Source: a virus (Duplodnaviria > Caudoviricetes). From it: a stretch of DNA of 64,000 bases. Both the position numbers and the translations under genes were made by a program. The stretch lies in IMG/VR virus record IMGVR_UViG_3300027996_003878. The stretch is one strand, 5' to 3'. The notes beneath the pieces are model-generated. The model saw only the letters and a list, made by a program, of their open reading frames with translations, was not told where the DNA came from and did no database searches. Of the stretch, positions 6,276-26,795 are shown piece after piece (within the stretch, counting starts at the first letter, position 1; every line of letters starts with the position of its first letter).

Positions 6276-6285
6276 GCTCGTCAAT

Positions 6286-6320
6286 AAAAAAACGACTCCC
6301 GAAAATATAGAGAGCCGTTT
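6286..6320 (-). terminator. Rho-independent terminator downstream of tRNA-Gly (possibly bidirectional)
   Basis: Minus strand reads AACGGCTCTC-TATATTTTC-GGGAGTCGTT-TTTTT: a 10-bp stem with G-U pairs plus a U-tract. Confidence 0.75.
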
Positions 6321-6326
6321 GGTCGG

Positions 6327-6398
<72 letters not shown>

Positions 6399-6426
6399 AA
6401 CTTGTTTGTGAATGCCTTATGCTTTA

Positions 6427-7047
6427 TCACTCACTAACTCGTAAAAGAATTCGTGGGGGTTTTTCCTCCGCAAAGTAAACATCTCCAAATTCTTTTGGCA
6501 GGGATGTCTGAATACTTGAAAATTTTAAACTCTTGTATACGTAGTAAGATTTTTCAAGCTCGCTAGGATCTTCGAAGCCAAGACCTCCACCTCCACCCTT
6601 AATATCTAGACTTCGAAAAGACACATCACCACCACCGTTATGGATAAAAGCCAGCCAAATCCAATTGACATCATAAGCAAAGTCAATTGGAGCCTCAATA
6701 ACAGAATTACCCTTCAGATTAAGTGTACCCGAGTCTACAAGCAGACTGCCAGGCAGCCCATTGGCATTCGCATAAACACCTAACCTAATACTTTTATCAC
6801 TGTCAACATTACTTGTACATTCAATTGCAATCTTATCAAATTGAACTCGCTGCTCCAAAGACATTGGGGCAGCATACAGCGTATGAGCCGGCCTTGCCAC
6901 CTGTAGGACGCTATCTGGTGTTAATCCAAGTCCATTATCATACCATCTACCTTTAATGAGGCCTGGTGTTGATATATAAACTGAATTAATGCAAATATCT
7001 TTGCCCAAAACTGACACATAAGTGCCTGCGCCTGCCTTAATGCTCAT
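6427..7047 (-). CDS. Putative virion beta-sandwich protein
   Basis: IRLGVYANANGLPGSLLVDSGTL and WIWLAF resemble motifs in phage fibre-associated domains. Lies in the structural block. Confidence 0.45.
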   Translation of the reverse strand: MSIKAGAGTYVSVLGKDICINSVYISTPGLIKGRWYDNGLGLTPDSVLQVARPAHTLYAAPMSLEQRVQFDKIAIECTSNVDSDKSIRLGVYANANGLPGSLLVDSGTLNLKGNSVIEAPIDFAYDVNWIWLAFIHNGGGDVSFRSLDIKGGGGGLGFEDPSELEKSYYVYKSLKFSSIQTSLPKEFGDVYFAEEKPPRILLRVSE

Positions 7048-7050
7048 AAC

Positions 7051-7509
7051 TTATTCTGGCTTATAGAACCTTAGAGTCTCTAGGTCTAGACTCCACTTTT
7101 CATCACCATTAATGTCAATGCCATAAGACTCGGCTAAGGTTCGGCTTGTTGCAATCATTTCCTCTTTGACGGCCTGTAGGCCTTTTAAGCATTCGCCTTT
7201 GTCTCTTTCGGCCTTTTGTTTTTGAGCCATTTCTTGCATAGCAAGATCTGCAAGAGCCATTTTTAATCTATTAAATCTACCTTGAATGCTAGATAGTTTC
7301 TTCTTGTCCGCTGGCTTTAAATTAATAAAATCCGGCCCCTTATCCGCCGTAGTAGCCTTGATCTTTGAAGCCCCAGCTGACGTCTTGCGTGTAGAAGTTT
7401 TTCTTGACTTAGACTTACTGACCGTCTTTCGCTTAGGCGCATTGCTCACAGTTGATGCTGTAGAATAACTTCTCTTAGACTTAGTGCTGCTTTTTTTTCT
7501 CGCCGCCAT
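7051..7509 (-). CDS. Basic K/R/S/T-rich (histone H1-like) protein with a coiled-coil C-terminal half
   Basis: N-terminus MAARKKSSTKSKRSYSTASTVSNAPKRKTVSKSKSRKTSTRK. GGAG SD upstream. Confidence 0.6.
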   Translation of the reverse strand: MAARKKSSTKSKRSYSTASTVSNAPKRKTVSKSKSRKTSTRKTSAGASKIKATTADKGPDFINLKPADKKKLSSIQGRFNRLKMALADLAMQEMAQKQKAERDKGECLKGLQAVKEEMIATSRTLAESYGIDINGDEKWSLDLETLRFYKPE

Positions 7510-7581
7510 ACTATCACTCCATTAAAAATAACTTTTGTCTTAATTTCTTAATTACATTATATAGCCTGACTATATATTATG

Positions 7582-7628
7582 TTTGTATATAAAGTAAGTA
7601 AATAAAATTTACTTACTTTATATACAAA
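7582..7628. repeat. Perfect 22-bp inverted repeat with a 3-nt loop
   Basis: TTTGTATATAAAGTAAGTAAAT-AAA-ATTTACTTACTTTATATACAAA. Confidence 0.95.
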
Positions 7629-7663
7629 ATTACCGCCTCTCTCTAGAGAGAGGCGGTAATTTT
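7626..7663. terminator. 38-bp perfect palindrome, probable bidirectional terminator
   Basis: AAAATTACCGCCTCTCTC-TA-GAGAGAGGCGGTAATTTT, with T-runs following on both strands. Lies downstream of 7715..9562. Confidence 0.8.
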
Positions 7664-7714
7664 TTTCACTTATATAACATAGTCTTATGCATTATTCTTA
7701 CTTATACCTAGTTA

Positions 7715-9562
7715 TTAGCTAATTTCGACAGTTGCCTTAACAGCGAGCATAACGTCGTAGTTACCATCGCCATCCGCAGCGCTTGTCATACAAACACCAA
7801 GCTCAGCAACATACTCGCCAGCAGCACTCGGCGCTGTTGTTGTTGCATTACCAGCGTTAACGAGTCCGCCGTCCATATAGACAAGGTCACCAGCTGAAGG
7901 AGCGGCTGTAAAGGCCATCGGAGCAACACCGCTAACAATAGCCTCGCCAGATGCGTCAGATGTCTTGCAGACACCGCCAAAGACGGAGCTTGAAGCGCCT
8001 GAATTATCAGCAGCAGCAAGCGTCTTATTAGCAGAGTAATAACCAAGCTCACCAACACTAAGTGCTGACGTGTCAATTCCAGGAGCAACAACCTGAGCTA
8101 CAGACTCAACTGCGCTACCCATATCGGTCCAAGAACCGTTGATGTAGCCCAACATTTGGCTTGTGCCCGTATCATAAATGATCATACCATTTGTAGGCGC
8201 TGCGATTGATGCATTTGTGGTCTGTGTGACCTGCGGGGCCTTGTCGGGCTGTTGGTTCAAGATAAGAGCGTCACCTGCATGCTGGAAATCAGCAATATCG
8301 CCACCTGAGTTGATCATCAAGATAGAGTAACCATCGCGAACAACAGTAAGTCCAGCTGAAATTTGACCACTAAAGTAGTTAACACCAGAGCCAGACTGAG
8401 TCATGCTGGGGTTTGTGCCTGAAACGTCAAATGTGTAGCCGAGGAAGCTTGTTGAGTTAATTGCAGCCAAAACACCACCATCAACATAGAGGCCAGAGCC
8501 GCTTGCTTGAGCGTAGGTGCTTGAGTAGAAGTTGCCAGTAACAGTCGTATCGCCGGCAAGTGTGTTAGCACCAAGAGCGCTCTGAGTGATACCGCCAGTA
8601 GCGTTATCAAAAACGATTGTAGCGCCCGTAGCGTCGGTGAATGTATAATCGCCGCCTTGGTGGGTGCTAGCGCCAGTGACATCAAGACCGCCATCAGCAT
8701 CAAGATTACCAGCTAAGGTCACCTGAGCAGCTGTTGACTGTGTGATTGCGCCAGTGGCTTGAGCGATTGTAAAAGCGCCGCCTGTAGCGTCAGTCATTGT
8801 GAAATCAGCGCCTGAGACATCAAGACCGCCATCAGCATCAAGATTACCGCCAAGCGTGACTTGGGCTGTACCTGTCTGCGTCATCGTGGCATCTGCCTCT
8901 GTGATTCTAAAGACACTTCCATCAGTAGCCGTGAACAAGAAGTCACCACCAGTGATGTCAACACCGTCTTGCGCGTCAACGTTACCAGAAAGTGTGACCT
9001 GCGCGCCACCTGTTTGTGTAAGGGCGCCAGCCATTGTTGTTGCGCCGGTTACATCAAGACCACCATCGGCATCAAGATTGCCAGAAAGTGTGACCTGAGC
9101 GCCACCAATCTGATCAACTTGACCAGTTAAGGTTGTAGCGCCAGTGACATCAAGACCTTGATTAGCATCAAGGTTACCGTCGAAGTCTGCTTGACCTGAA
9201 CCGAAGTTCCACGTCGGGTTGCCCGTAGCAGTAACGTTACCAGCAGCATAATCTGTGGTAGCGTTGATTGTCAAAGTATCAGCAGCTGCATCACCAAGGG
9301 TGATATTGCCTTGAAAATCTGCATCACTTTCAAAAGTGCTGTTACCAATAACAGTCTCTGTACCATCAATTCTAAGGTCACCCTTGATTGTGGTAAGAAC
9401 ACCGACAGAGCCGATGTCAATTGAAGTTGCCGTTGAGGCACCAAGTAAAAGTGAACCAGCCTGATCTGTATCAAGACCAGCAGCCTGTTGTACTTCGAGT
9501 ACTGAACCACTCGGGAGCTGTTGAATTCTACCCGAAATGGATAATAAAGGTAAATTAGCCAT
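7715..9562 (-). CDS. G/A/T-rich repetitive fibre or decoration protein with a C-terminal DUF2190/cement-like domain
   Basis: About five internal repeats of AQVTL[SGA]GN[LV]DADGG[LV]D[VI][TS]G. AGGAG SD. C-terminal domain resembles that of 9949..11595. Confidence 0.65.
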   Translation of the reverse strand: MANLPLLSISGRIQQLPSGSVLEVQQAAGLDTDQAGSLLLGASTATSIDIGSVGVLTTIKGDLRIDGTETVIGNSTFESDADFQGNITLGDAAADTLTINATTDYAAGNVTATGNPTWNFGSGQADFDGNLDANQGLDVTGATTLTGQVDQIGGAQVTLSGNLDADGGLDVTGATTMAGALTQTGGAQVTLSGNVDAQDGVDITGGDFLFTATDGSVFRITEADATMTQTGTAQVTLGGNLDADGGLDVSGADFTMTDATGGAFTIAQATGAITQSTAAQVTLAGNLDADGGLDVTGASTHQGGDYTFTDATGATIVFDNATGGITQSALGANTLAGDTTVTGNFYSSTYAQASGSGLYVDGGVLAAINSTSFLGYTFDVSGTNPSMTQSGSGVNYFSGQISAGLTVVRDGYSILMINSGGDIADFQHAGDALILNQQPDKAPQVTQTTNASIAAPTNGMIIYDTGTSQMLGYINGSWTDMGSAVESVAQVVAPGIDTSALSVGELGYYSANKTLAAADNSGASSSVFGGVCKTSDASGEAIVSGVAPMAFTAAPSAGDLVYMDGGLVNAGNATTTAPSAAGEYVAELGVCMTSAADGDGNYDVMLAVKATVEIS

Positions 9563-9621
9563 AATATTCTCCTAATTAAAAAAATGTGTATATTTTATCT
9601 TAATTACGTTAACGTTCGTTT

Positions 9622-9693
9622 TAATCTTACTAATCTTACTAATCTTACTAATCTTACTAATCTTACTAATTTTACTAATTTTACTTAATCTTA
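9622..9693. repeat. 9-bp tandem repeat (TAATCTTAC)n
   Basis: Five perfect copies at 9622-9666, two TAATTTTAC variants at 9667-9684, then one degenerate copy. Confidence 0.95.
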
Positions 9694-9927
9694 AACTTCT
9701 TCATAACGGATATCAGCTCTTAAGCAGCGAATTGATCTTTCATCCGTAAAGTCATAAGGTACACCGTCTTTTGAGATAACGTCACCGGCTTTCCATCCCG
9801 AGGCATCAGGAGCAGGAAACTCCTCCATTCTGCCGTCTTTCATCGGGACCCTGATCATCAATGTTTGGCCCATTTGCTTAACCAAACCAGGTCTCGGTGG
9901 CTCTCCCAAATACTTAAATTGAGCCAT
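9691..9927 (-). CDS. Hypothetical protein
   Basis: 78 aa with a clear AAGGAG SD. Confidence 0.75.
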   Translation of the reverse strand: MAQFKYLGEPPRPGLVKQMGQTLMIRVPMKDGRMEEFPAPDASGWKAGDVISKDGVPYDFTDERSIRCLRADIRYEEV

Positions 9928-9948
9928 ATTTTCTCCTTTTTTTTACAA

Positions 9949-11595
9949 TCATGATAATATCACAAAATCTTGATCAACCATCACAATTAATGTTGTATTG
10001 TCTTTCGCAACGCCTATCTTTTGCACTACCGAACCCGCGCTTGCAGGCGCTACATTTGTAATTTGCCCCGATATTTCCGACAAATAGTAAGCTTCACCCG
10101 TAATCAAACCGGGATAGTTTATCTCACCGTAAAACAAAACCTCTGCCGTGGTCGCTGTAGGTTTATTCAAGATTATTCCTATACTGGGATATTTAGTTGG
10201 ATTATTTGCACTAGCCGTACCAACTGAGTTACTTCCGTTAATATATACAGCATATCCATCCAAAACCAAACTTGTACAAGAAAATAAACCAGTTACCTTA
10301 TTTGAAGTTGTGGCTCCACTAGTACCTATAATAGAGGATCCGCTTCTAGTTAATAAATCTCCATCACTAAGAGAATCAATAGCTAAGCTTTGGCCGCCAG
10401 CTTCTGTTAAAGCAACAACGCTTGGATTTGGATATAACCCAGATAAATCGCCTCCGGCAGGGCCATTATTTATTAAACACCTATTAGATGGATCAACTAA
10501 AGCGCCAATATATTGACCACCATATATTTCAGCAGATCCAGTGCCAATGTCTAAACTCAAATTTCCTTGAATATGGCCATTTTCTAGAAAAAAATCAGCA
10601 TATCCATCAACAGTAACATTTCCGCCAATTTGACCTGTCTGCAAATAAAAAATAGACGTATCATTTACAGTCAGATCTCCATTTATAGAAACATTACTGA
10701 GATCTCCTAAACCTACATCTCCATTAAACTCAAGGGATGTCAGCTTAGATATCCCACCGTTTAGGCCATAATTCCCTCCTGCCGGATACCCTTCAGGATC
10801 AGTTGTATCAAATGTAAAGTCGAATAAAGGAGACGTCACTGTAGTAGATGCCAGCCATGCTCCAGAAACATTAAACATAGTAATACCAGAGCCTCCCAGC
10901 CAACATCCGGTATTAAAAGTTATGTAGTTTGTGTTCCTAGCATACATTGCTAAAGCAGCTCCTATTGTTCTAAAATTACAATTAACAAAATTAATTTCTA
11001 CACCGCCAAAATTAGTAGTCACAGGCGATGCGTCCCCCTTAACTCCAATTAATTGGACTGCGGGAGAGGTTCCATCTTGAGGTCGAAAGTCTAAATTTCT
11101 AAATTGATTATCTGATGGTCCGGCAGAGCCGCTATTAACAAGGCCTGAATAAGGCCCGCCGGAAAGATAAGTGTTTAATGATACTGAGGTGGCGTTGCTT
11201 AATACCAAGCAGGAGCCTGTCGTGGCTTTTATCTGACAGAGACCTTGCCCTCCACGCCCAATTAAACCAACACCACTTTTGCTAATAATTAAATTTTCGT
11301 CATATATCCCTGGTGCAATAATAACTGCGGCAGGGTTTGAAGTGCTAGGTGATAAACCGCTTTCAATATCATCAATAGCATACTGAATCGTTTTATATGG
11401 GCTTGAGGAAGTTCCATAGCCAACACCATCAGTGCCGCTGAGATCAACATATCTTGACCTTTCCGGCAATGGCAATGGTGGTAAATCGCTTGGAGGCCTG
11501 GCCTCCCAGCGATTTGTTGCAGCGTCATACGCAACCACGTAGCCATCAGCAGCTCCAAATGGAGGTGCTAATTGTTTAAGTGGGAGTTTTGGCAT
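9949..11595 (-). CDS. Putative fibre protein with a pectin-lyase-like beta-helix region and a C-terminal cement-like domain
   Basis: YVDLSGTDGVGYGTSSSPYKTIQYAID is the typical lead-in to parallel beta-helix domains. G/N-rich repeats, PAGGDLSGLYPNPSV linker, and C-terminal GLITGEAYYLS..VVQKIGVAK. Confidence 0.6.
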   Translation of the reverse strand: MPKLPLKQLAPPFGAADGYVVAYDAATNRWEARPPSDLPPLPLPERSRYVDLSGTDGVGYGTSSSPYKTIQYAIDDIESGLSPSTSNPAAVIIAPGIYDENLIISKSGVGLIGRGGQGLCQIKATTGSCLVLSNATSVSLNTYLSGGPYSGLVNSGSAGPSDNQFRNLDFRPQDGTSPAVQLIGVKGDASPVTTNFGGVEINFVNCNFRTIGAALAMYARNTNYITFNTGCWLGGSGITMFNVSGAWLASTTVTSPLFDFTFDTTDPEGYPAGGNYGLNGGISKLTSLEFNGDVGLGDLSNVSINGDLTVNDTSIFYLQTGQIGGNVTVDGYADFFLENGHIQGNLSLDIGTGSAEIYGGQYIGALVDPSNRCLINNGPAGGDLSGLYPNPSVVALTEAGGQSLAIDSLSDGDLLTRSGSSIIGTSGATTSNKVTGLFSCTSLVLDGYAVYINGSNSVGTASANNPTKYPSIGIILNKPTATTAEVLFYGEINYPGLITGEAYYLSEISGQITNVAPASAGSVVQKIGVAKDNTTLIVMVDQDFVILS

Positions 11596-11736
11596 ACGAA
11601 ATACTTACAAAATAAAACTTTGGTTATGTTAACATGTCCTCCTTTTTATAAATAAATAATAATAGATTGTTACATCTAACTAATTGACACTAAACATTTG
11701 CAAGTGGTTAAAAAAATTAATTTAATTAATTATTAT

Positions 11737-12312
11737 TTAAATGTCATAATTTAAATCAATTACATCAAAAGCATCCAAATCAAAATTTGCATTAACACCG
11801 TTCCAAATTAGCTTATCACCCGCCGCAATGTCTTTGATCTTTTTAGCAGTCAAACCTGAGCTGGTAGCTGAGAAGTAACACTCAGTGTTTTTCAAACCAT
11901 CACCTACAGCCGCCTGAATTCCATTAACCATTACAGTAACATAGCTGTCATTTTTAGGAGTTTCACTTATTTTAATATTTGTATATGATCCATTGCCAGC
12001 CGTCACTGCTGGAGTTAGCGCTTTGTCTTTAATAGTTGGAACGCCTCCTTCCTCAATCGGTGGCGGCATCGGGCCGGGAGTAAGGCTATTAATTTGCAAC
12101 TCCATGTTATCAAGTCTGGCCCTAACAGTCCCCCACTCACGGCTAGGATCTATGCCCAACTCTTTTTCGATATTAATAGTTGCATCCCTCAAACGATTAA
12201 CCACCTCCGCCTTTACAGGCGTAACCAAATCTATAGTAATTGGCAATTCAACAGATGAATCTATTTGATATGGATATTTACTATATTTAGGCAAAATACC
12301 TCCAAAATTCAA
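11737..12312 (-). CDS. Putative structural protein
   Basis: YPYQID..AEVVNRLRDATINIEKELG..TVRARLD followed by a Pro-rich linker and a beta-rich domain. Start codon uncertain (TTG). Confidence 0.5.
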   Translation of the reverse strand: MNFGGILPKYSKYPYQIDSSVELPITIDLVTPVKAEVVNRLRDATINIEKELGIDPSREWGTVRARLDNMELQINSLTPGPMPPPIEEGGVPTIKDKALTPAVTAGNGSYTNIKISETPKNDSYVTVMVNGIQAAVGDGLKNTECYFSATSSGLTAKKIKDIAAGDKLIWNGVNANFDLDAFDVIDLNYDI

Positions 12313-13103: not shown

Positions 13104-13388
13104 TTAGATCCTTTTAAAAAAGACGGCTTTCTTTAAAAAAACAAACTTATCAGAGACAAAAGCTGATCCTGATATTAATCCACACCCAATCTTATTAACT
13201 ACCTTGTTATCTTTATTTACCAAGACAAAGGCGAGATTGCCAATGGATGTCATTTTGACAATATCAAAATAACTTAAAGCTATCTTTAAGTTATAAAGCG
13301 ACACATCATCGCCATAACACTCTTCAACCAAATTATCAAAGTCGCCAACTTTAATTCCATTATCGAGAATAAAACCATTACTAATCAT
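13104..13388 (-). CDS. Hypothetical protein
   Basis: 94-aa ORF overlapping the map stop. Confidence 0.55.
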   Translation of the reverse strand: MISNGFILDNGIKVGDFDNLVEECYGDDVSLYNLKIALSYFDIVKMTSIGNLAFVLVNKDNKVVNKIGCGLISGSAFVSDKFVFLKKAVFFKRI

Positions 13389-14181
13389 AAGTAATATCCT
13401 CCCATTTAGTCATTACTTCAGTGTAAGTGTCATGAACAAATATTGTATGCTCAAAATGACAAGAGATATCCTTAGTTACAATCGTCCAACCATCGTCCAA
13501 AACTTTAGTCTTATCACTTTTTAAAGATAGCATTGGTTCAATTGCTATTGTTAATCCCTTTTGAATCCTAATACCCTCTTTTGCTTTCGCTTTGTTATAA
13601 ACAAAAGGATGAGCGTGAGGTGTATTAAGCTCCAAACCATGGCCGCCATAATTAGTAATTAAATGATATGGATAACCTCTTACAGTACGATAAATTGTCT
13701 GGCCTATTATTCCTAGCTGCTTACCAACTGCAATCGAATCAATTGCTTTATCTAAGGATTTTTTACATAATTCGAGCATATAAACATGATCTTTTTTTAT
13801 AGGCTCACCGTAGATTGCAGTGATTGCTGCATCCGCTATTACGCCGTCATAAGTTGCCCCTAGATCTATCTTGACAACGTCGCCCTTTTGCAACACATAA
13901 TCACGAGGAATGCCGTGAACCAGTTCATTATTGACTGATGCGCATATAGAGCCTGGAAACCCTTTATAATCTTTAAAGGTGGCAGTGCAATCAAAAGACT
14001 CTATGCATTCAATTGCAAAATTTTCAATATCTAATAAATTCAAATTTGGCGTTGCGCTCTCTATGAGATGCTTTGACTTGGCTAGAATATTGCCTACACA
14101 TTTCCCAGCAATCCGCTGCTTTTGCAGCCAATCGTCATCTTTTAAAGAAATAAATTCATTATTAATAAATAAATCACTCAT
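13381..14181 (-). CDS. map: Methionine aminopeptidase type I
   Basis: All five metal ligands are recognisable: KIDLG (D), IADAAIT (D), GGHGL (H), IAIEPML (E), HFEHTI (E). Confidence 0.93.
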   Translation of the reverse strand: MSDLFINNEFISLKDDDWLQKQRIAGKCVGNILAKSKHLIESATPNLNLLDIENFAIECIESFDCTATFKDYKGFPGSICASVNNELVHGIPRDYVLQKGDVVKIDLGATYDGVIADAAITAIYGEPIKKDHVYMLELCKKSLDKAIDSIAVGKQLGIIGQTIYRTVRGYPYHLITNYGGHGLELNTPHAHPFVYNKAKAKEGIRIQKGLTIAIEPMLSLKSDKTKVLDDGWTIVTKDISCHFEHTIFVHDTYTEVMTKWEDITYD

Positions 14182-15190: not shown

Positions 15191-18100
15191 TCAACCGCAT
15201 CCAGAAAAGCCACAATCTAAACATCGAAGGCAGCCATCTTCACGGGCCATCTGGTGCGAGCCACACGAGGGGCAGACATCCGCCTTCTTCTGGCTCTTTT
15301 TTCTTACATGCTTTTTTAACAGTCTAGCTAGGACATTATTTATATCAACGATATTACCGTCTTTAGACAACTGCTCAATTAAATATTCAATAGGCACCCC
15401 ATGACGTAACGATGTAGATATCATTCTCGTAGTCCATGAAAGCTCTTCATTGTCAGCTGACTCAATAATATTTTCTACAAGCACATTATTGGTAACATCT
15501 AATAGATCGTAATGGCCCCGCTTTGCTCTGACCACTTTGCCCTCTGTATATTTTGAAGGTATTTTCCAATTATCATGAAGCCCCATAAAGATCTCATAAA
15601 GCTCATTGTAAAGCATTCCAACAAGAACAACCCACTTAACACCCTTCACCGTGGCGCGATGAATTGCGCACATTAACTCTTTCGGCCTTTTAGGTGATTC
15701 GGACGGGATAATTGCTGTAGGACGGCCATCCTTACTTTTATCTTTATTCTGACTCTTATAAGTCTCATCACTTACAAGAACACCCGTTCTACAGCCATCT
15801 CTGTATACTGTAACCCCCTTACAGCCAGACTCATAACCAGTCATATACACATCGCTAACAACTTCTTTTGTTGTATTGTTAGGTAGGTTAGTTGTATTAC
15901 TTATAGCGTGACTTACCCATCTTTGAGCGGCAGCCTGGCCTTTTACCTTGCTCACCCAATTAATATCATTTGAGGTCGCTTTAAAGTAAGGTGAATCTTC
16001 AATTTCGGTTTTTCCAGTAATTTCCATCCATTGTTTAAATCTATGATGATACACCGTGTATTCCTTCCATTTATCCCCCATAGAATCAACAAAATCAACT
16101 GAGGCGTCAATATCACTAGGATTAATTTTTTTACGTCTTGTATATTTTACTAGGAATGCCGGCTCGATGCCTGATGTTGTTTGAGTCAAAATAGATACAG
16201 ACCCACATGGCGCTGTTGTTGTTAATGCGATATTTCTACGGCCATACTTTTTAGCTAAGCTTCTTATCTCTGGATCTGCATTCCAAATTCTTTTGAGGTA
16301 ATTACAATCAGATTTATCTTCTAATTTGTAATCAAATATTTCAAATGGGCCTCGCTCTTTGGCCAAAATACAGCTGGACTTGTGCGCAGCCAAAGCCATT
16401 GTTTTATATATTTTTTCAATAACTTTTATTGATTTATCAGATCCATAAGTATGACCTAATGCTGCCACCGCATCTCCAATAGCGGTAACGCCTAAGCCGG
16501 TTCTTCGGCCAGCAGAGCAAACTCTTAGAAATTCATTCCAAAGCTTTAATTCAATTTCTTTTACTTCATTCGGTTCAGGATCCAGGGTGATTTTTTCAAT
16601 GATCTTTTCAATGATTTCTATCTCTAAATCAACAAGATCATCCATCAATCGCTGAGCCTTCATTGCATGCTCATAAAACAGATCAAAATCAAATGATGAT
16701 TTATTTTCGAATGGCTTTTTTACATATGATAAAACGTTTAATAATAACAAGCGACAACTATCTGTACCCATCGGGATCTCGCCGCATCTGCGAGTTGTAA
16801 CTGTATTTACAATAATAGATCTGGTTCTAGATTCTTTAATACAATAAACAGTATCTGGGGCAATGCTTTTTCTGGATACTAGTTTGAGAAAAGTTTTTTT
16901 TGTGTAATTCCTTTTAACATTAGAGAGAAGTTGTTTTAACTTTTGATCTTTTTGTGGGTGATTGAATTTAATTAGCTTTCCGAAAGCCTTCCACCCACCA
17001 CAAGTAGTTATAAGTTCATATTGATCTTTTACTTTATAATTAATATTTTTTATATTAGCAGTATGACTCTTTCGTCTTAAATAAATTGAAGATGAAATGC
17101 CATTAGCATGCAGTAGTAGCTGAACATCTCTCAAAAGCCCCCTGTTTGACTGAGCAAGCCTAATAGAGGCATTAGAACGAGATCCCGACTGCACACTGCC
17201 GTCAGCGTAATAAAGTCCAGAAAGATAAAACAATCCCTCTTTTTTTCTAGCATTATTTAATACAAATTCTGGAACGGATAACTTTGTTTCTTTAGAAAAA
17301 TTATACTTTTGCTCAAGAAGATGTTTCAAAAAAGTAGAGCTTATTCTTGTCTTATTACGCCTTTCATCTGTAGAGATATAACAAGAAGATAACTTGCGCT
17401 TATTCCATCCATTCGTCAATTGAACTGAGTTATTTTTAAACAAATTATTGGCAATATCATTTATCAAATGAGTCATTTCATAGCGATGATCGCCCCATAA
17501 GTCTATATGAACTTTATTATCAGAAAATGTCCCATCACCAGCAATAAGGCCCATTAAAAATGAACACATTTCATCATTCGTCATATCTGAACTCAAGCCA
17601 TCTAAAATATCATGCTTTGGAGGTGTGGGCACAGATATTAGAATTTCATGACTTGGTGATAAATCTTTAGCTTCTACCATTCCATCAGTCGTTGCTATAT
17701 GATGATCTGGAGTACACTTTAGATTTTGACCATTACTAAGCTCTAATTCCAACAGCTCAGCAGATTTCTGAGTTATAAACGCACCACCCTCATACTCGCT
17801 ACAAGTCGTTCCTTTTTGATTAAAATCCATCTTCCAATTTGTAGGATCTTCATTTTTAGGATCACCAACATACGAAATACGATTGTCTACAAGAGGAATG
17901 CCTTGACCTTTAATCTGAGAATCTTTAAATTTAACATAACCTGATTCGTCCAAAAATCTCTCATCTCCATGGAAGCAAGGATTAGTTGCACGCTCAGCAA
18001 ATGCAGGATCTTTGTGACGATAAAGATGAGGTATCGAGTTGTTTTTTATATTATCTTCAAATAGAAGGCCAGGCTCCGCCATACCATGCGCTGCATCTAC

Positions 18101-18886
18101 GATCTTACTCCAAAGCTCTTTTGCACTCACCCAACGCTCGACTTGGGGAGATTTTTTATCATCTATAGGCCATCTTAACTGAACATCGTTTTCACTTTTA
18201 ACGGCATTCATAAATTCATCAGATAAAAGAATAGAGATGTTGGCTCCAGTTACTTTTTTCAAATCCTTCTTTATATCAATAAATTTTTCAATTTCAGGGT
18301 GATGACAGCTAATCACTAAAATTAGTGCCCCGCGTCTGCCTCCTTGAGCAACCTCTCGACAGGTATTGGAAAATCTTTCCATAAAAATTCCAATACCATC
18401 AGTTGTTCGAGCTGCATTGTTTGTAGGCACTCCCTTGGGTCGAATATTCGATATATTAACCCCCACGCCAGCACGACGCTTCATAAGTTGGGCTAACTCC
18501 TGATCTGTTTTCAGGATGCCGCCATAAGAATCATAAGTAGACTCTATAACAAAACAATTTCCACTCGATTGCAGCTGAAAGGGATTGCCGACCGAACTCA
18601 TCGGACTCCCTTGCGGCACAATATATCTAAAATTTTCAAGTAAAGAAAATATCTCATCTTCACTCATAGGGTTTTCGTATTTACCCTCTACACGCGCAAA
18701 CTCTTTAGCCAAACGTTTGTGCATATCAAAAGGAGTCAACTCATGATATGATCCTTGATTATCACGAAGAGCATATTTATCAACAAAAACTTTTGCAGCA
18801 AGCTCATCTCCTTTAAAATAATCTAAAGATGCCTCGTACACTTCATTATAAGAAAAACTTTTAACCATTTTTTTATTACTTTTCAA
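15191..18886 (-). CDS. nrdJ: Class II (adenosylcobalamin-dependent) ribonucleotide reductase with an intein
   Basis: PQGSPM, SGNCF, RRGA, ATNP|CGEI split by an insert, TTAPCGSVSILTQTTSGIEP, ISNTTNLP, GCKGVTVYRDG, TSCPD-like domain and C-terminal CPSC..GCLRCLDCGFSGC. Confidence 0.95.
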   Translation of the reverse strand: MKSNKKMVKSFSYNEVYEASLDYFKGDELAAKVFVDKYALRDNQGSYHELTPFDMHKRLAKEFARVEGKYENPMSEDEIFSLLENFRYIVPQGSPMSSVGNPFQLQSSGNCFVIESTYDSYGGILKTDQELAQLMKRRAGVGVNISNIRPKGVPTNNAARTTDGIGIFMERFSNTCREVAQGGRRGALILVISCHHPEIEKFIDIKKDLKKVTGANISILLSDEFMNAVKSENDVQLRWPIDDKKSPQVERWVSAKELWSKIVDAAHGMAEPGLLFEDNIKNNSIPHLYRHKDPAFAERATNPCFHGDERFLDESGYVKFKDSQIKGQGIPLVDNRISYVGDPKNEDPTNWKMDFNQKGTTCSEYEGGAFITQKSAELLELELSNGQNLKCTPDHHIATTDGMVEAKDLSPSHEILISVPTPPKHDILDGLSSDMTNDEMCSFLMGLIAGDGTFSDNKVHIDLWGDHRYEMTHLINDIANNLFKNNSVQLTNGWNKRKLSSCYISTDERRNKTRISSTFLKHLLEQKYNFSKETKLSVPEFVLNNARKKEGLFYLSGLYYADGSVQSGSRSNASIRLAQSNRGLLRDVQLLLHANGISSSIYLRRKSHTANIKNINYKVKDQYELITTCGGWKAFGKLIKFNHPQKDQKLKQLLSNVKRNYTKKTFLKLVSRKSIAPDTVYCIKESRTRSIIVNTVTTRRCGEIPMGTDSCRLLLLNVLSYVKKPFENKSSFDFDLFYEHAMKAQRLMDDLVDLEIEIIEKIIEKITLDPEPNEVKEIELKLWNEFLRVCSAGRRTGLGVTAIGDAVAALGHTYGSDKSIKVIEKIYKTMALAAHKSSCILAKERGPFEIFDYKLEDKSDCNYLKRIWNADPEIRSLAKKYGRRNIALTTTAPCGSVSILTQTTSGIEPAFLVKYTRRKKINPSDIDASVDFVDSMGDKWKEYTVYHHRFKQWMEITGKTEIEDSPYFKATSNDINWVSKVKGQAAAQRWVSHAISNTTNLPNNTTKEVVSDVYMTGYESGCKGVTVYRDGCRTGVLVSDETYKSQNKDKSKDGRPTAIIPSESPKRPKELMCAIHRATVKGVKWVVLVGMLYNELYEIFMGLHDNWKIPSKYTEGKVVRAKRGHYDLLDVTNNVLVENIIESADNEELSWTTRMISTSLRHGVPIEYLIEQLSKDGNIVDINNVLARLLKKHVRKKSQKKADVCPSCGSHQMAREDGCLRCLDCGFSGCG
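16787..17977 (-). mobile_element. 397-aa intein with a LAGLIDADG homing endonuclease, inserted in the NP|C active-site motif, with an atypical C-terminus (TTRR|C)
   Basis: Block A CFHGDERFL, block B LKCTPDHHI, LAGLIDADG-like MGLIAGDG and SGLYYADG, block F DTVYCIKE..SIIVN. Excision restores ATNP-CGEI. Confidence 0.92.
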
Positions 18887-19559
18887 AAGAACTATCCAAA
18901 GATAATATATACTCTTTTATTACTTCCTTAGACTCTTGAATTAACTTTACATACTGAGATCTTGAAATACTCAAGGCCGTGAGAACAAAACTTATAGTAT
19001 TTGGCTTATGCCCATTAAAGCCATACGTCATATTTACTACTTTTTGATTTTTTTCAGGCAACGTATCAATTGCTTTTGATATTATTTCCGCCATTTGTTC
19101 TGACTCTACCCTTTCCAAAGCAGATAGAGAAGTTTCAATTATTGTCGGAATAACGTTTGTTTTGTAGGGCCTTACCTCTTTAGCCACTTTTAATGGGTAA
19201 CGAATTGTTGAATGACAATTCGCAGATCTCGACACCCTAGTACTTATATATTTATCAGCCCACCATCCAAAAATACCTTTTTCAGGATCGTAGGTTCTCA
19301 AAGCAAGAAGAAGGGCTTCCATACCATCCTGCTCTAAGTCTTCATGGTTCGAGAACTTTTTATATTTATTTGTCCTCACAGATACCAAATGCTTCAATTT
19401 TATAATACAATCATTTTGTATTGTCTTAATTTCTAGTATTTCATCAGGACACGTTGACTCTTTCAATCTTTCCGTAGCTTGAAGGTAGTCTGCGGCTATA
19501 TCACTTACCTCTTGATTTCTCGCCTCACGGCTTTTTTTTGTAGATTTCTTGCCCATCAT
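18876..19559 (-). CDS. Sigma-70 family RNA polymerase sigma factor
   Basis: Region 2 HEDLEQDGMEALLLALRTYDPEKGIFGWWADKYI and region 4 AIDTLPEKNQKVVNMTYG..LSISRSQYVKL. Confidence 0.88.
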   Translation of the reverse strand: MMGKKSTKKSREARNQEVSDIAADYLQATERLKESTCPDEILEIKTIQNDCIIKLKHLVSVRTNKYKKFSNHEDLEQDGMEALLLALRTYDPEKGIFGWWADKYISTRVSRSANCHSTIRYPLKVAKEVRPYKTNVIPTIIETSLSALERVESEQMAEIISKAIDTLPEKNQKVVNMTYGFNGHKPNTISFVLTALSISRSQYVKLIQESKEVIKEYILSLDSSFEK

Positions 19560-20277: not shown

Positions 20278-21729
20278 TTAACTCTCATGCCAACCTATTT
20301 TTTTCAAATAATCAGAAATGTCTATTGCACCATTGTCACCAGCCGGGCCATTTTCAAAGTTTTCAGGCCGGTACGGCTCTTCCATTTCTGATATGGAGGC
20401 ATTTTTAAAATTCTTTTTTAATACATGCCGCCCCAATTCTCCGTCTCGATTTTTAATAATATGATAAGTCAAATCTGAATATCTATACTCGTTCTTTCGA
20501 GTTTCTATTTGAATGCCTATATTTGCATGGTGCATTATCAATGAGGAGCGGCCAATTCTGTGTAGGCCAATCAAATCCGATGAGTCTTTTTTGCCCTTGT
20601 TTTGAGGTCGATTCAATTGAACTGCTGTCAATGTAGCTATGTTGTGAACCCTTCCAAACTCATGCACCTTGCCTGCGATATAACCTAACTTAAGCCAATC
20701 GTCTCCAGAGAACTCACGATCTTCTAAAAGGCCTAAATAATCAACAACTACAAAGTCAGGCTGAAAGCTATCACAAGCCTCCTGATACCTACGCTCAATC
20801 TCCTCTACAGAAGCGCCTCGGGGCACATCAATAATCTGAAACTCATAGGGATATCTATCAATAAATCTTACAGCCTGAGAAAGAGAGTCTGCCTGAAGCT
20901 GATTCAACTTACAATCTCTTAGTCCGTAAATTGGAACATCCGCCAGTCTAGACATCGTTCTTCTTGCGCAGGCCTCATACGGCATTTCTAATGAAAAGTA
21001 TAAACAATTATATCCCTTTCCAAAATTTTCCGAATCAGTATATATTGTGTTCTGCTGCATCCACATTTGAATTGCCATGTTATTGAGAAACATACTTTTA
21101 CCGCCCCCGGTTTCAGCGGCTACTATAACCATTTCTCCAGGGCAAATTCCATTTTTTATATAGTCTAAAAAAGAATAGCCGGTCAGGATTCCTCTGCCCT
21201 TTTCCTCCTCACTTGCTTTTTGAAAATATTCAAGTTTAAACCGAGGCATATAAGCCTTCAAGGTCTCTTGCTTGAATACCTTCTTCTTCCCTTTCCTAAT
21301 CTCTTTTAAGTTGACAATTTCTGACTGTAAACTTTTAATAATTTTATCGTGATTTAAAGAAGCATCACTAAGATTTGTATTAGATAAAGAATTTCTTAGA
21401 TTGTTTATTACTCTATTGCTATATTTGTTCTTTAACTGATCTAAGTAAAATCCAAAATCAGAATCACTATAATCAACAGAATCTAAAACACTCCAGACAT
21501 TCAAAAAGTTATCAACTATATCTTGTCGCTCTTTAAATCTTGATTCTAGAACCTTGCGAGAGGGAACTTCCTTATAAGCTTTTGCAAAGCTTAATATTGA
21601 CTTTGCGAACAAATAATATTCTTTAGAGAACAAGTTCTCATTGTAAGCGTCTAAGAAGTCAAGCGCGCGACGTTTATTTGTGGTAAGCGCTTTTAAAACT
21701 TGTAACTCACATTGGTCTGACTCAAGCAA
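20278..21729 (-). CDS. dnaB: Replicative DNA helicase (DnaB family)
   Basis: Walker A IVAAETGGGKS, YFSLEMP, VVVDYLGLL, AVQLNR, IIKNRDGE. Confidence 0.93.
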   Translation of the reverse strand: MLESDQCELQVLKALTTNKRRALDFLDAYNENLFSKEYYLFAKSILSFAKAYKEVPSRKVLESRFKERQDIVDNFLNVWSVLDSVDYSDSDFGFYLDQLKNKYSNRVINNLRNSLSNTNLSDASLNHDKIIKSLQSEIVNLKEIRKGKKKVFKQETLKAYMPRFKLEYFQKASEEEKGRGILTGYSFLDYIKNGICPGEMVIVAAETGGGKSMFLNNMAIQMWMQQNTIYTDSENFGKGYNCLYFSLEMPYEACARRTMSRLADVPIYGLRDCKLNQLQADSLSQAVRFIDRYPYEFQIIDVPRGASVEEIERRYQEACDSFQPDFVVVDYLGLLEDREFSGDDWLKLGYIAGKVHEFGRVHNIATLTAVQLNRPQNKGKKDSSDLIGLHRIGRSSLIMHHANIGIQIETRKNEYRYSDLTYHIIKNRDGELGRHVLKKNFKNASISEMEEPYRPENFENGPAGDNGAIDISDYLKKIGWHES

Positions 21730-21730
21730 C

Positions 21731-22486
21731 TTAACGACCCTCTTTTCTAAAGTCTTTTCCTAGCACTGGAATCATACTTACGTAATTCATCAAGCTAGAT
21801 AAGCTTAGCCCTATAGAGCCCTCAAAAGAGCCGGCTATATTTGGAGAATTTGTACACATAAAGATCGGTAATTTATTTTGAGCCCTACACCTAAAAACGT
21901 CTTCCATGATTCTACCAAAAAGATCAGACGACGAAGCTGTCGGCATAAAGCGCGGATCAAACTCATCTATTACTAGAAAATCAACCATTAATAACTCATT
22001 ACGAGCAGACATTTTATTCGAAGAATCATTGTAAATAAGATGGTTAACAATATCATTTACAGTTACATAAAGTGAAGAGAAGCCCCTCTCAACAGCTCTC
22101 TTTAAAATATTCGTGCAGGCAAATGTCTTACCAACCCCATGCGGCCCAGCAAAGCAAACGCAAACGCCGTCAGAATAAGCTTTATCGAAATCACTAGTAA
22201 CTTTATTATAATAATTTAATAAAGTTGGATCTCCTTTAAAATCACGGCTCATTTCTAGCTTCCAATATGACAATGGAATATTGCTTTGTGCATATCTGGA
22301 CAAAGCAGTATTAATTATCATGCACTTTTCACATGCCGAATCTAAAGATGCTGAATTTGATTTGCAGCTGTCACATTCCTTTAAAGTCGCAGACAGCTCA
22401 TGAATCACTTTTCTTTGCGGGATCGTTACGAGAACTCCACTTTGAAAAACTTGGGTAGCCATAATTTGCTTGATTTGGTGCGGCAT
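21731..22486 (-). CDS. DnaC/IstB-like AAA+ helicase loader with an N-terminal zinc-binding motif
   Basis: CDSC..CEKC, Walker A GPHGVGKT, Walker B LVIDE, CTN. Adjacent to dnaB. Start codon uncertain. Confidence 0.85.
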   Translation of the reverse strand: MPHQIKQIMATQVFQSGVLVTIPQRKVIHELSATLKECDSCKSNSASLDSACEKCMIINTALSRYAQSNIPLSYWKLEMSRDFKGDPTLLNYYNKVTSDFDKAYSDGVCVCFAGPHGVGKTFACTNILKRAVERGFSSLYVTVNDIVNHLIYNDSSNKMSARNELLMVDFLVIDEFDPRFMPTASSSDLFGRIMEDVFRCRAQNKLPIFMCTNSPNIAGSFEGSIGLSLSSLMNYVSMIPVLGKDFRKEGR

Positions 22487-23684: not shown

Positions 23685-25148
23685 TTAAATTACAGTAAAG
23701 CCTTTCTCGCTAGAATATATTTTCTTTCGCTCTTTTGAGTGCTTACTTAAGTAATGAACATCATCATAAAAATCTATTACAGCTGCTCGTTTTTTGCCTT
23801 TCCAAGGGCGGATTACTCGACCTATTCTTTGTAGCGCACGAACTGAACTCTTCCCCGCACCTGCTAAAATTAACCCGGATAAAGCAGGCATATCCACACC
23901 AATATCAAATATCGTTGAGGCAATTATACAATTCACCTCACCACTTTCTAATCTTTCTTTTGCTTTATTTCTAGCATCAATGGAGTCTTTTCCGCTTAAT
24001 AAGATACAAGGAAGCTCTTCAGATATTTTTTTATACAATATTTTTCCATGTGCAATTTGTGTGTAAAGAACTAAAACTTTGTAATTTTTATCAACAAGAA
24101 TTTTAGCCCACTGAGATACCAATGAATTTCTAATATCATTTTCGACAACATATTTTTTATAAATATGAGGGTATTTTTTGGTAAGCTTTTCTTTGTACTT
24201 TGGAACTTTTACAAATTTAATCAGAGGGGGCACCAAGTATCCTTGATCAATAAGTGGGCTGGCCGATATATCAACGATTTTCGAACCAAAAATTGACTCT
24301 ATAAGCAAGTCACTTCCATCGTCGCGCCAAGGGCTTGCACTCATTCCATAAATATATTCTGGATTTATATTTTTATAAATCTCTTGAATAGTATTACAAG
24401 AGGACATGTGGCACTCATCAAAAATGTTCAACTTAACAGTTTTCATGAGCTTTCTTATGTCATTATACTTGCTATCACCTAAAGATTTTTCTTTGCCAAT
24501 CTTATCTGTTGTAATCTGAGACTTTAACCCTATGGCCTGTCCAATAGTCCAAACACTTACAATATTAATTTTTTTAATCTCGCAAAGTCCGTCTCCAATT
24601 ACCCCAACATCTTCATCAAAAACTTCATTAAAAAAATTGTGAAATTGATAAAGAAGATCTGTGCCAATGACATAAATAAAAGTCGGCTTCCCAAAGTAAG
24701 CCGTGATCATAGCGGCCATAAGTGATTTTCCGCTACCAGTGGCTGACCTTATAACTCCGCAATCCTTATCCTTCACAACGCTAAGCACATCGTTTTGATA
24801 AGGCCTTGGTTCTTTTTTAATTTTCAATAAATTATCATGTATATCAATTGAATTAATTGGCGTCTTCGGCGTTCTTCTGTCTTCAATGATTAAACTCTTA
24901 CCGGCGTCGCTGTAAAAGTCTCTAACTCTATCCAAAAGTCCATATGGAAAAGTCAACCGCTTGGTTAATATACGATGTATTCCATCCCACCTTACAAAAG
25001 AACCATTCTTATAATAACCTTTGTACGCTTTGGTGTATTTCGCCCCCTGTACGTGAAATGATAGCTCATCGTCCAAAGATCGAATAAAAGTTATATCAGG
25101 CTCTTCTTCTATAGCGCAGCCATCTTTATTTATAATTATTTTAGACAT
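23685..25148 (-). CDS. SF2 DEAD/DEAH-box helicase (UvsW/XPB-like)
   Basis: PRPYQ, SATGSGKS, DECH, SASP, IFDIGVDMP, QRIGRVIR. Confidence 0.92.
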   Translation of the reverse strand: MSKIIINKDGCAIEEEPDITFIRSLDDELSFHVQGAKYTKAYKGYYKNGSFVRWDGIHRILTKRLTFPYGLLDRVRDFYSDAGKSLIIEDRRTPKTPINSIDIHDNLLKIKKEPRPYQNDVLSVVKDKDCGVIRSATGSGKSLMAAMITAYFGKPTFIYVIGTDLLYQFHNFFNEVFDEDVGVIGDGLCEIKKINIVSVWTIGQAIGLKSQITTDKIGKEKSLGDSKYNDIRKLMKTVKLNIFDECHMSSCNTIQEIYKNINPEYIYGMSASPWRDDGSDLLIESIFGSKIVDISASPLIDQGYLVPPLIKFVKVPKYKEKLTKKYPHIYKKYVVENDIRNSLVSQWAKILVDKNYKVLVLYTQIAHGKILYKKISEELPCILLSGKDSIDARNKAKERLESGEVNCIIASTIFDIGVDMPALSGLILAGAGKSSVRALQRIGRVIRPWKGKKRAAVIDFYDDVHYLSKHSKERKKIYSSEKGFTVI

Positions 25149-25216: not shown

Positions 25217-25417
25217 CTAGCTAGGCGCTTCAGGGTACATAAAAGATTGATCGTCATATATTACAACGCGATTCTTTTTTGCAACAAATCTATATAAGTT
25301 AGTATTTGTATTATTTTTCTTATCCTCTGATTTTTTATTCAGAGTTTTCTTATTATGAAGCTTATTCATGCACTTAAAAGCTGATAATTTATCAGCCTTT
25401 TCTTTTATCAATAACAT
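25217..25417 (-). CDS. Possible small basic protein (doubtful)
   Basis: K/N-rich 66-aa ORF overlapping the tubulin stop. The true start may be the internal MNKLH. Confidence 0.3.
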   Translation of the reverse strand: MLLIKEKADKLSAFKCMNKLHNKKTLNKKSEDKKNNTNTNLYRFVAKKNRVVIYDDQSFMYPEAPS

Positions 25418-26795
25418 TTCTAGTCAATCGACCAAACGCAGAGCTTTTCTTTGCAATTTTGTCTTTGACTTTTTGAGCCTGTGATACGGTCTTATCAGTT
25501 CCAGCATCAAGGTTTAATGCTAAATTACGAGTCAAATCTTTGTTTTTAATCGCCTCTAGATGGGTAGATACTTCTTTTTTAAGCTCAGTAACTCTTGAGT
25601 CCGGCAAGCTAAGCCCGCTAAAAAATGAATAGACCTTAATTACATCTTCTTCAATTGTATCATCTACATATATGCCTCTGAAGACGCCAAGAGGAGTTTG
25701 AGCTACGTCTTGAACCATTGCCATAGCATAGTTTATCGATGAGCTTGGTATTTTATCCCAAACCTTTTTATTAGCCAAAAACATTGCTCCAATGTATTTT
25801 GTTTGCTTTAGGTCAAAGCCACTGGCCAATAACCCTGACGTCATATTGCTAATGACTGCCTCAGCAATAGCTGTATCTTCTTCGTAATTATCAATTGTCA
25901 TCCAACCATAGAGACTTAACCCTCCACCATCAGTGACAATCTTTGCCCACTCCATGGGATCCAAGGATTTGACATTTGAAGGCTCTGAGGAAAAGGTGTT
26001 AAATACATCTATAGGCTCAACAATGGCCTTATTGCTAACCCGATAAAACTCCATGGGACTAACATCACTAAAGATGGTTTCGATCTTGGCGTTGTCCACA
26101 ACAATTAAGTTGTTTATTCTCGACGTCTGAACCTCTTTTGCCAGCTTAGAAAGCGCCTCTAAAGAGTTTTTCTTCGTCTGAGGATCCTCATTAGTCATTG
26201 GCAAAACCGTAACAACCAATACCGGCCTTCCTGTCGCTGACAGAATGTCAATCATAGTCTCTACAGACCCACTACCGCTGCCGCCACCTAGAGATGTACA
26301 AAGAATAAAGACCTGACAATCTCCAAGCTTATCATTAACAAGCTCATTTATCTTGTCCTTGTGTGTTTCGGCAGCCTCAAAGCCAAGCTGAGGGTCCTTT
26401 GATGCCCCTCCAAGGCCATACTCAAGCAAACATTTGTTTGACTCAGGTAGATTGATGTGAGTTAAATCTTGCTGCGCTGTATTAAATACAATTGCTTCAT
26501 AGCCAAGATCATAAAAACACTCGGCTAGACGTGAGCCTGCCTGCCCAGAGCCAACAATTCCGAAATCAATACTTCTTGTGCGTCTTTCAACAATCCGAGG
26601 GGGCATATCTTCATCCTTTTGCACGGCCTCTTCGCCACTCTTTTGCTGCTTAGCTTCCATCTGCTTTTTTAAAGCTTGAAGCTTTGCCGCGTCTAATTCA
26701 AGCTCATCTTCAGAAACCATAACTACGGCCTCTTGTGAGATGTCATCGACAATATCATTTTGTGTGGCTTGCCCATTTTCAGTTTTAACAGTCAT
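25392..26795 (-). CDS. Tubulin/FtsZ-superfamily GTPase (PhuZ/TubZ/CetZ-like)
   Basis: GIVGSGQAGSRLAE, GGASKDPQLG, signature TSLGGGSGSG, VVVDN, T7-loop-like SLDPMEW. Confidence 0.92.
   Translation of the reverse strand: MTVKTENGQATQNDIVDDISQEAVVMVSEDELELDAAKLQALKKQMEAKQQKSGEEAVQKDEDMPPRIVERRTRSIDFGIVGSGQAGSRLAECFYDLGYEAIVFNTAQQDLTHINLPESNKCLLEYGLGGASKDPQLGFEAAETHKDKINELVNDKLGDCQVFILCTSLGGGSGSGSVETMIDILSATGRPVLVVTVLPMTNEDPQTKKNSLEALSKLAKEVQTSRINNLIVVDNAKIETIFSDVSPMEFYRVSNKAIVEPIDVFNTFSSEPSNVKSLDPMEWAKIVTDGGGLSLYGWMTIDNYEEDTAIAEAVISNMTSGLLASGFDLKQTKYIGAMFLANKKVWDKIPSSSINYAMAMVQDVAQTPLGVFRGIYVDDTIEEDVIKVYSFFSGLSLPDSRVTELKKEVSTHLEAIKNKDLTRNLALNLDAGTDKTVSQAQKVKDKIAKKSSAFGRLTRNVIDKRKG

Follow-up and report, generated by a model that had tools for sequence, protein, structure and literature searches.

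Probable splicing of an intein that ends in Arg-Arg

Can an intein whose last two residues are both arginine still release itself from its host protein? The question is raised by a 397-aa intein encoded in a 64,000-nucleotide stretch of viral DNA (Duplodnaviria; Caudoviricetes; IMG/VR record IMGVR_UViG_3300027996_003878). This whole stretch, hereafter the window, comes from an IMG/VR viral contig of 94 kb. The intein (16787..17977, minus strand) combines a HINT splicing domain and, inserted into it, a LAGLIDADG homing endonuclease, and it interrupts nrdJ, the gene of a class II (adenosylcobalamin-dependent) ribonucleotide reductase (RNR). In a review of protein splicing, the residues that carry out the third step are Asn, Gln, Asp and Glu only (PMC4031507). 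An Arg at this position needs a different reaction. A preliminary description of the window had offered three alternatives: an undescribed splicing chemistry, conditional or host-assisted processing, or a dead RNR that carries a still-mobile endonuclease. Our results support the first of these. The last, including a simple inactivating mutation, is disfavoured because the splicing residues are 99-100% conserved, position F:13 covaries with the ending, and mini-inteins without an endonuclease keep Arg-Arg in intact hosts. We estimate a probability of about 0.55 that Arg-ended inteins splice through an undescribed last step that depends on the Arg. The broader claim that the intein still matures NrdJ appears highly probable; it includes the small share that we allow for conditional or assisted processing.

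Boundaries and conserved blocks of the intein

Translation of the minus strand over 15191-18886 reads ...AFAERATNP/CFHGDE...SIIVNTVTTRR/CGEIPMGTDSC..., where slashes mark the splice junctions. Together with an intein-free allele described below, this bears out the initial view of a 397-aa insert that separates ATNP from CGEI and ends in T-T-R-R before a Cys. The coordinates first given, 16784-17977, are correct at their end, but their start takes in the codon of the +1 Cys, and the intein proper covers 16787-17977. This +1 Cys (Cys701, TGC, 16784..16786, minus strand) is at once the splice nucleophile and the thiyl-radical Cys of the NPCGE motif of the RNR. With the insert at the tip of the radical-Cys loop, the unspliced RNR should be inactive.

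All blocks of the intein lie on the minus strand. Block A (17939..17977) starts with Cys1 (TGC at 17977-17975), which is found in 135/135 aligned inteins. Block B, GQNLKCTPDHHIAT (17690..17731), carries the TxxH motif as T89-P-D-H92 and aligns to the NrdJ-1 intein 8ubs. The first LAGLIDADG motif, FLMGLIAGDGTF (17525..17560), ends in GDG, with Gly, Asp and Gly conserved at 92-100%, and the second, YLSGLYYADGSV (17192..17227), ends in ADG, with Asp conserved at 91% and Gly at 93%. Block F, TVYCIKESRTRSIIVN (16805..16852), contains Cys379 (F:4; 16841-16843), Glu382 (16832-16834) and Arg386 (16820-16822), the last of which replaces the usual His at F:13. Block G, TVTTRR (16787..16804), closes with Arg396 (G:6; CGC, 16790-16792) and Arg397 (G:7, usually Asn; AGA, 16787-16789). 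Blocks A and B and the two LAGLIDADG motifs are intact, as had been described; for block F the description holds in part, since the block is present but its F:13 His is Arg386.

Most of the features that define class 1 HINT inteins were found: an in-frame insert with an empty allele, Cys1, the TxxH motif of block B, a +1 Cys and the HINT fold. The feature that differs is the step-3 residue, which is Asn (rarely Gln, Asp or Glu) in this class and Arg397 here. The assisting His residues at F:13 and G:6, which are common but not universal, are likewise replaced by Arg386 and Arg396. The putative endonuclease has both motifs with their acidic residues and matches LAGLIDADG_3 in Pfam (PF14528; 3.3e-15); the Intein_splicing family scored 32.0 bits, under its cut-off of 35.8 bits. 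We modelled the intein and 4-5 flanking residues per side with AlphaFold2 (predicted local distance difference test 88.6; predicted template modelling score 0.91). The best Foldseek matches of this model were the TliVMA intein, PI-PfuI and PI-SceI, and I-DmoI-type endonucleases matched the inserted domain. Judged by its sequence, the insert is a genuine mobile LAGLIDADG intein of class 1 type, located directly before the thiyl-radical Cys of NPCGE.

An alternative end of the intein at 'IIVN', six residues upstream, was considered and rejected. The residue that would follow it varies among relatives (G, T, N, S, A, C), its Asn aligns with the 'AN' of block F in canonical inteins, and the empty allele shows all 397 residues to be extra.

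Authenticity of the sequence and the intein-free allele

The preliminary description had argued that no single miscall could account for the Arg-Arg ending, and this conclusion stands. Three independent seawater studies (X7, X9 and X10) yielded contigs that agree fully at 16784-16792, and five further members of the 90% cluster, which were assembled separately, also read RR/C. Using an alignment of 12 intein sequences as query, we found 12 further loci in viral contigs and two metagenome bins, where the last Arg is encoded by AGA, CGA or AGG and the penultimate Arg by AGA, CGA, CGT or CGC. In the nrdJ gene of the window, AGA, CGC, CGA and CGT also encode conserved RNR arginines. A reassigned codon is excluded by the multiple Arg codons used at the ending in other loci and by the presence of the same codons at conserved RNR arginines. 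Given identical codons in independent studies and an ending written with AGA, AGG, CGA, CGT and CGC across the 12 loci, we attach almost no weight to a sequencing or assembly error or to a non-standard reading of the Arg codons. The varied use of Arg codons shows that it is the amino acid on which selection acts.

A search with the C-extein recovered an intein-free allele (protein P0265, DNA L028). Its product has 828 aa (1225 - 397) and no intein domain, and its junction reads ERATNPCGEIPMG (ATNPCGEI) without interruption. Because this empty allele is exactly 397 codons shorter, the boundaries of the intein are exact. L028 and the joined exteins of the window share 99.2% nucleotide identity. 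They differ by 10 synonymous and 10 non-synonymous codons, giving a ratio of non-synonymous to synonymous substitution rates (dN/dS) of 0.27, which rests on these 20 codons. Of the 10 synonymous differences, three are found no more than ten codons from the insertion point (AAT/AAC at -2, GGC/GGT at +2 and AGT/AGC at +10). This cluster (window 16754-18004) could be a signature of the homing site or of co-conversion. The coexistence of alleles with and without the intein in one phage population suggests that the element was gained or lost recently.

In the strain whose nrdJ lacks the intein, the product of the neighbouring DnaB-like helicase gene has 819 aa or more and a faint match to LAGLIDADG (L028:1-1467), whereas the DnaB-like open reading frame (ORF) of the window (20278-21729, minus strand) has only 483 aa. 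The two strains may carry reciprocal presence/absence polymorphisms of inteins in nrdJ and dnaB.

Distribution and phylogeny of the Arg ending

Relatives were collected with a word-indexed search and an exhaustive HMMER search, both seeded with the window intein. The HMMER search counted 1371 representative matches at E<=0.001, of which the best 150 were examined. The matches are RNR proteins in which a homologous insert occupies the same NP/C site. Among the fetched proteins that were mapped onto the query, the junction reads RR/C in 103, HN/C in 27, GQ/C in 24 and GN/C in 14. The endings RQ, AQ, RN, SN and SQ occur in small numbers, and AR, VR, SR and QR in a few proteins. In total, 92 of the 135 complete inteins at this site end in Arg, a share that is inflated by seeding the searches with an Arg-ended intein. 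The comparison of homologous alleles that the preliminary description had called for gave a clear outcome. Homologs at 24-60% identity to the window intein (the range in a 33-sequence subset of the Arg-ended inteins) nearly all end in RR/C, and not in Asn, as had been envisaged for the case of a simple inactivating mutation. The hosts of Arg-ended inteins are diverse: their C-exteins are 26-100% identical to that of the window, with a median of 41%, and the residue after the catalytic Cys is G, A, V, F, S or H.

We built a maximum-likelihood tree of the 135 inteins after removing their last two residues. A clade of 99 members, made of the 92 Arg-ended inteins with 4 Asn-ended and 3 Gln-ended inteins nested among them, is split from 36 inteins ending in Asn or Gln (Shimodaira-Hasegawa-like approximate likelihood ratio test 99%). 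The tree requires the terminal residue to have changed at least 4-5 times. Gln is the last residue of 21/36 inteins in the sister group of the Arg clade, and Gln endings also occur at nested positions within the Arg clade itself. These results indicate that the Arg-Arg ending is the trait of a clade and no lesion. The Arg-ended clade is large, mostly viral and, so far, found in metagenomes only. No Arg-ended intein was found in the cultured-phage collection, where relatives, including those of Bacteroides phage SJC03 and of SPbeta-like phages, end only in Gln or Asn.

Several host RNRs in this set (P0003, P0006-P0008, P0010, P0012, P0036 and P0041; 1500-1660 aa) are 300-400 aa longer and present extra HINT/HNH-type domains (PF13392, PF13403 and PF07591). 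A second intein at another site is probable in these proteins.

Conservation and covariation of splicing residues

In the group of 92 inteins, which was defined by its Arg ending, the terminal Arg397 is necessarily found at 100%, and conservation reaches 100% for Cys1, 99% for Thr89, 100% for His92, 100% for Cys379 (F:4) and 99% for Glu382. The penultimate Arg396 is found in 95% of the group and is otherwise replaced by A, S, Q or V. Position 386 is basic in 92/92 Arg-ended inteins (R in 87, K in 5), whereas F:13 is H, N, E or S in 43/43 Asn- or Gln-ended inteins and basic in none of them. These 43 include the revertants that fall within the Arg clade (P0008, P0012, P0122, P0127, P0075, P0129 and P0136). 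Arg386 was assigned to F:13 from an alignment with the NrdJ-1 intein, where a weak, sub-threshold stretch places it opposite the 'THNF' His. These patterns indicate that His(F:13), His(G:6) and Asn(G:7) were exchanged as a unit for Arg or Lys, Arg and Arg in the Arg-ended clade. They also indicate that the splicing residues and the terminal Arg of the clade are under purifying selection.

A cluster of three basic residues at the C-terminal junction, together with the conserved Glu382 and Asp91, also bears on a different explanation. For other inteins, the idea that splicing can be conditional is well established, and the window intein may be arrested until a ligand, a change of redox state or pH, or a partner from phage or host acts on the junction. 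The Arg/Lys-Arg-Arg cluster would then be an anion-binding site for phosphate or a nucleotide and would gate the maturation of the RNR during infection, a role for which an insert on a residue indispensable for RNR activity is well placed. However, no ligand-binding motif and no conserved partner gene were found. The hosts are very different RNR subtypes, as seen from their +2 residues, and the widely differing contigs speak against a specific partner acting in trans. Moreover, a gated reaction would still require a cleavage chemistry without Asn. We consider splicing that strictly awaits such a signal to be quite improbable.

Mini-inteins and selection on the host genes

If Arg-ended inteins did not splice at all, they could be parasites: a homing gene drive would repeatedly invade and kill dispensable phage RNR genes, and the sampled hosts would be freshly invaded. 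The endonuclease motifs are indeed conserved, the 99.2%-identical empty allele speaks for recent mobility, phage RNR is an auxiliary gene, and the cultured-phage collection holds no Arg-ended intein. A pure DNA drive, however, needs neither the HINT residues (Cys1, TxxH and Cys F:4) nor the Arg set, and these are 95-100% conserved.

Inteins that cannot home provide a second argument against this explanation. Two lineages of the Arg-ended clade have no endonuclease and consist of mini-inteins of 160-162 aa, and several others carry a decayed endonuclease (263-313 aa). All of these forms keep Cys1, the Arg at F:13 and the Arg-Arg ending. Five mini-inteins of one lineage are 67-80% identical to each other, and the exteins of their hosts are 63-85% identical. 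By these values, the immobile mini-inteins have diverged together with intact, full-length RNR genes. In addition, the active-site residues N-P, +1 Cys and +3 Glu are retained in 92/92 hosts of Arg-ended inteins. Pairwise dN/dS of the exteins among diverged loci is 0.1-0.5 in nearly all comparisons, values that are indicative only, since dS exceeds 0.74 everywhere and 1 in most pairs and is often saturated. With these observations on both sides, an outright parasite that never splices seems unlikely.

One Arg-ended intein comes from a metagenome-assembled genome (MAG) of Ca. Muiribacterium, where the neighbourhood of the intein-bearing RNR gene is phage-like (dUTPase, exonuclease and methylase). 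The second metagenome bin with an Arg-ended intein (G002) is mixed.

Possible chemistry of the last step

We propose that the first two steps of splicing would proceed as usual, with an N-S shift at Cys1 followed by transfer to Cys+1. The third step would be a release from Cys+1 by an undescribed reaction that requires the terminal Arg. In the specific form that we put forward tentatively, and by analogy, N-epsilon of the Arg would attack its own backbone carbonyl, which would form a six-membered lactam and free the intein. The basic neighbour at F:13, together with Glu382 and Asp91, would lower the pKa of the guanidinium group or deprotonate it; both carboxylates are enriched in the Arg-ended clade. 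The analogy is with Gln: N-epsilon of Arg holds the same side-chain position as N-epsilon-2 of Gln, so that its attack would give a six-membered ring, as does the formation of glutarimide from Gln. The change from Gln to Arg takes a single CAR to CGR transition, and Gln is the prevalent ending in the sister group of the Arg clade. In peptide synthesis, activated Arg is well known to form its delta-lactam as a by-product, and Arg serves as a general base in several enzymes.

It is also conceivable that these inteins splice without the Arg side chain acting as a nucleophile, the C-terminal bond being broken through a thioester. In one version, Cys+1 would undergo an N-S acyl shift and the freed amine would take the N-extein from the Cys1 thioester, after which the intein would leave by hydrolysis or head-to-tail cyclisation. 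In the other, Cys F:4 would attack the last carbonyl to form a thiolactone. The three basic residues would serve as an oxyanion hole or a strain device in both. Cys1 and Cys+1 are invariant, Cys F:4 is found in 100% of the Arg-ended group against 70% of the remaining inteins, and it is a proven nucleophile in class 3 inteins (PMC4031507). Yet Cys F:4 is common in the Asn- and Gln-ended relatives too, and so lacks specificity for the clade. The last residue, in turn, is invariantly Arg while the penultimate one tolerates A, S, Q and V, which is expected of a side chain that is chemically essential. We therefore find a thioester route rather doubtful, though it is the strongest of the alternatives.

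Several points weigh against splicing by an Arg-dependent last step, some of them directed at the lactam in particular. A guanidinium group has a pKa of about 13.8 and is a very poor nucleophile. The delta-lactam is familiar solely from activated Arg in peptide synthesis, and we know of no biological precedent for the cleavage of a backbone through cyclisation of Arg. The covariation between F:13 and G:7 runs in the same direction in 4/4 independent pairs, which are too few for significance (p = 0.125). The inflated share of Arg endings and the saturated dS values described above belong here as well, as does the small number of differing codons behind the sole close dN/dS comparison (L028 against the window). 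Finally, phage RNR is probably dispensable, and the Ca. Muiribacterium MAG, whose only class I/II RNR carries the Arg-ended intein, also possesses a class III NrdD.

A conserved clade of mobile inteins without a C-terminal Asn, Gln or Asp will be unexpected to specialists. It represents either a further, undescribed C-terminal cleavage or a whole family of non-splicing inteins that persists against expectation. We found no description of Arg-ended inteins in the open-access literature that was searched, including PMC3653736, PMC2677866 and an actinophage intein preprint. If cyclisation of Arg is the correct explanation, it would be a fourth kind of step 3 and the first case in which a guanidinium side chain drives the cleavage of a backbone. 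The inteins concerned would then form a new mechanistic class that is widespread in marine phages. A new chemistry of C-terminal cleavage would be relevant to the mechanism of inteins and to protein engineering, where new tools for cleavage and ligation could follow, perhaps with a different control by pH or redox state. The annotation of inteins would improve as well, as Arg-ended inteins are currently likely to be called defective. The mini-inteins of about 160 aa in this clade would be convenient for structural work.

Relation to known inteins

The position just ahead of the thiyl-radical Cys, on its N-terminal side, is described as the one that contiguous RNR inteins occupy most often (PMC2677866). 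Class 1 inteins that end in Gln are known from the RNR of Chilo iridescent virus and from Pol II of Pyrococcus abyssi (PMC4031507). They share with the window intein the same architecture, Cys1, TxxH and +1 Cys, and the last residue has a nitrogen at the epsilon position in both. They differ in that their last residue is a carboxamide and F:13 is His or Asn, whereas the window intein presents the guanidinium group of an Arg and F:13 is Arg or Lys in its clade. The Gln-ended intein of Bacteroides phage SJC03 (TSQ/CAEI) occupies the same NP/C site.

Similarity in structure and in sequence led to different inteins. PI-PfuI, the RNR intein of P. furiosus (PDB 1dq3), and TliVMA/PI-SceI match the model best (Foldseek E 5e-15 to 9e-16, template modelling score about 0.5). 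They share the two-domain build of HINT and LAGLIDADG at a sequence identity of just 10-18%, and we take all three to have the canonical Asn ending. By sequence, the sole solved chain that we found is the split intein NrdJ-1 (PDB 8ubs and 9omb; E 0.0017), which comes from the same host enzyme and whose block B aligns to that of the window intein. Unlike the window intein, NrdJ-1 is a split intein without an endonuclease, and its insertion point follows the catalytic Cys, one residue further downstream (PMC2677866). For its split inteins, that study describes a C-terminal Asn.

Homologous inteins are also found in proteobacterial class I RNRs, such as NrdA of Methylohalomonas lacus and Nitrosococcus halophilus (28-30% identity over 83% of the query). 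These inteins read SNLC/C...TKN/TEI, being inserted after the catalytic Cys, and have a +1 Thr, His at F:13 and a terminal Asn, as is canonical. The class I RNR inteins of this kind in our set (P0080-P0121, from proteobacteria) sit one residue downstream of the site of the window intein. Because they are homologous to it, a single lineage of inteins appears to have settled on either side of the catalytic Cys, depending on the class of RNR.

Two other groups of HINT domains were compared with the window intein. Class 3 inteins, with their triplet Trp(B:12)-Cys(F:4)-Thr(G:5), have Cys F:4 in common with the Arg-ended clade, where it is invariant, but they have no N-terminal nucleophile and end in Asn, whereas the window intein has Cys1 and ends in Arg (PMC4031507). 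The presence of Cys1 sets it apart from class 3; G:5 is Thr in the window intein but A, V or M in relatives. Bacterial intein-like (BIL) domains have no +1 nucleophile and reside in non-conserved or secreted hosts; the window intein has a +1 Cys and lies in a conserved enzyme at a classic site.

Host gene and genomic setting

The nrdJ gene (15191..18886, minus strand) is a single open frame of 1231 codons from a TTG and contains one intein. The true start is likely the ATG at 18868-18866, which gives a product of 1225 aa. In Pfam, this product matches Ribonuc_red_lgC (the barrel; 2e-76) and also lgN (the all-alpha N-domain), and its C-terminal TSCPD region scores slightly below the cut-off. 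The intein-free allele P0265 reaches 453.5 bits against TIGR02504 (NrdJ_Z, adenosylcobalamin-dependent RNR); since this exceeds the curated cut-off of 399.95, the host protein can be identified as NrdJ. The N-extein (17978..18886, minus strand; residues 1-303) ends in ...ERATNP and holds the Cys of GNCF and the active-site Asn302. The C-extein (15191..16786, minus strand; residues 701-1231 and the stop codon) begins with CGEIPMGTDSC and has a Cys-rich C-terminal tail. The translation presents the active-site set of NrdJ: N302, C701, E703, C711 and the Cys of GNCF.

The stretch was found in seawater metagenomes of about 19 studies. The neighbours of nrdJ form a phage replication module with a DnaB-like helicase, a loader ATPase, a UvsW-like helicase and a TubZ/PhuZ-like tubulin. 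The last of these (25392-26795, minus strand) belongs to the tubulin/FtsZ family and has a C-terminal domain similar to that of TubZ; such a PhuZ-like protein is typical for jumbo phages. Its gene adjoins those of the UvsW-like helicase (23685-25148) and the helicase-loader-like ATPase (21731-22486). Two genes close to nrdJ are unusual as phage cargo: an ORF of 227 aa immediately upstream (18876-19559, minus strand) with a weak match to sigma-70 region 2, and an M24 methionine-aminopeptidase-like gene downstream (13381-14181, minus strand). The G+C content is 0.39-0.46 at 6001-12000 of the window and about 0.35 in the rest, and the G+C-richer region includes two large ORFs (7715-9562 and 9949-11595) without a Pfam match.

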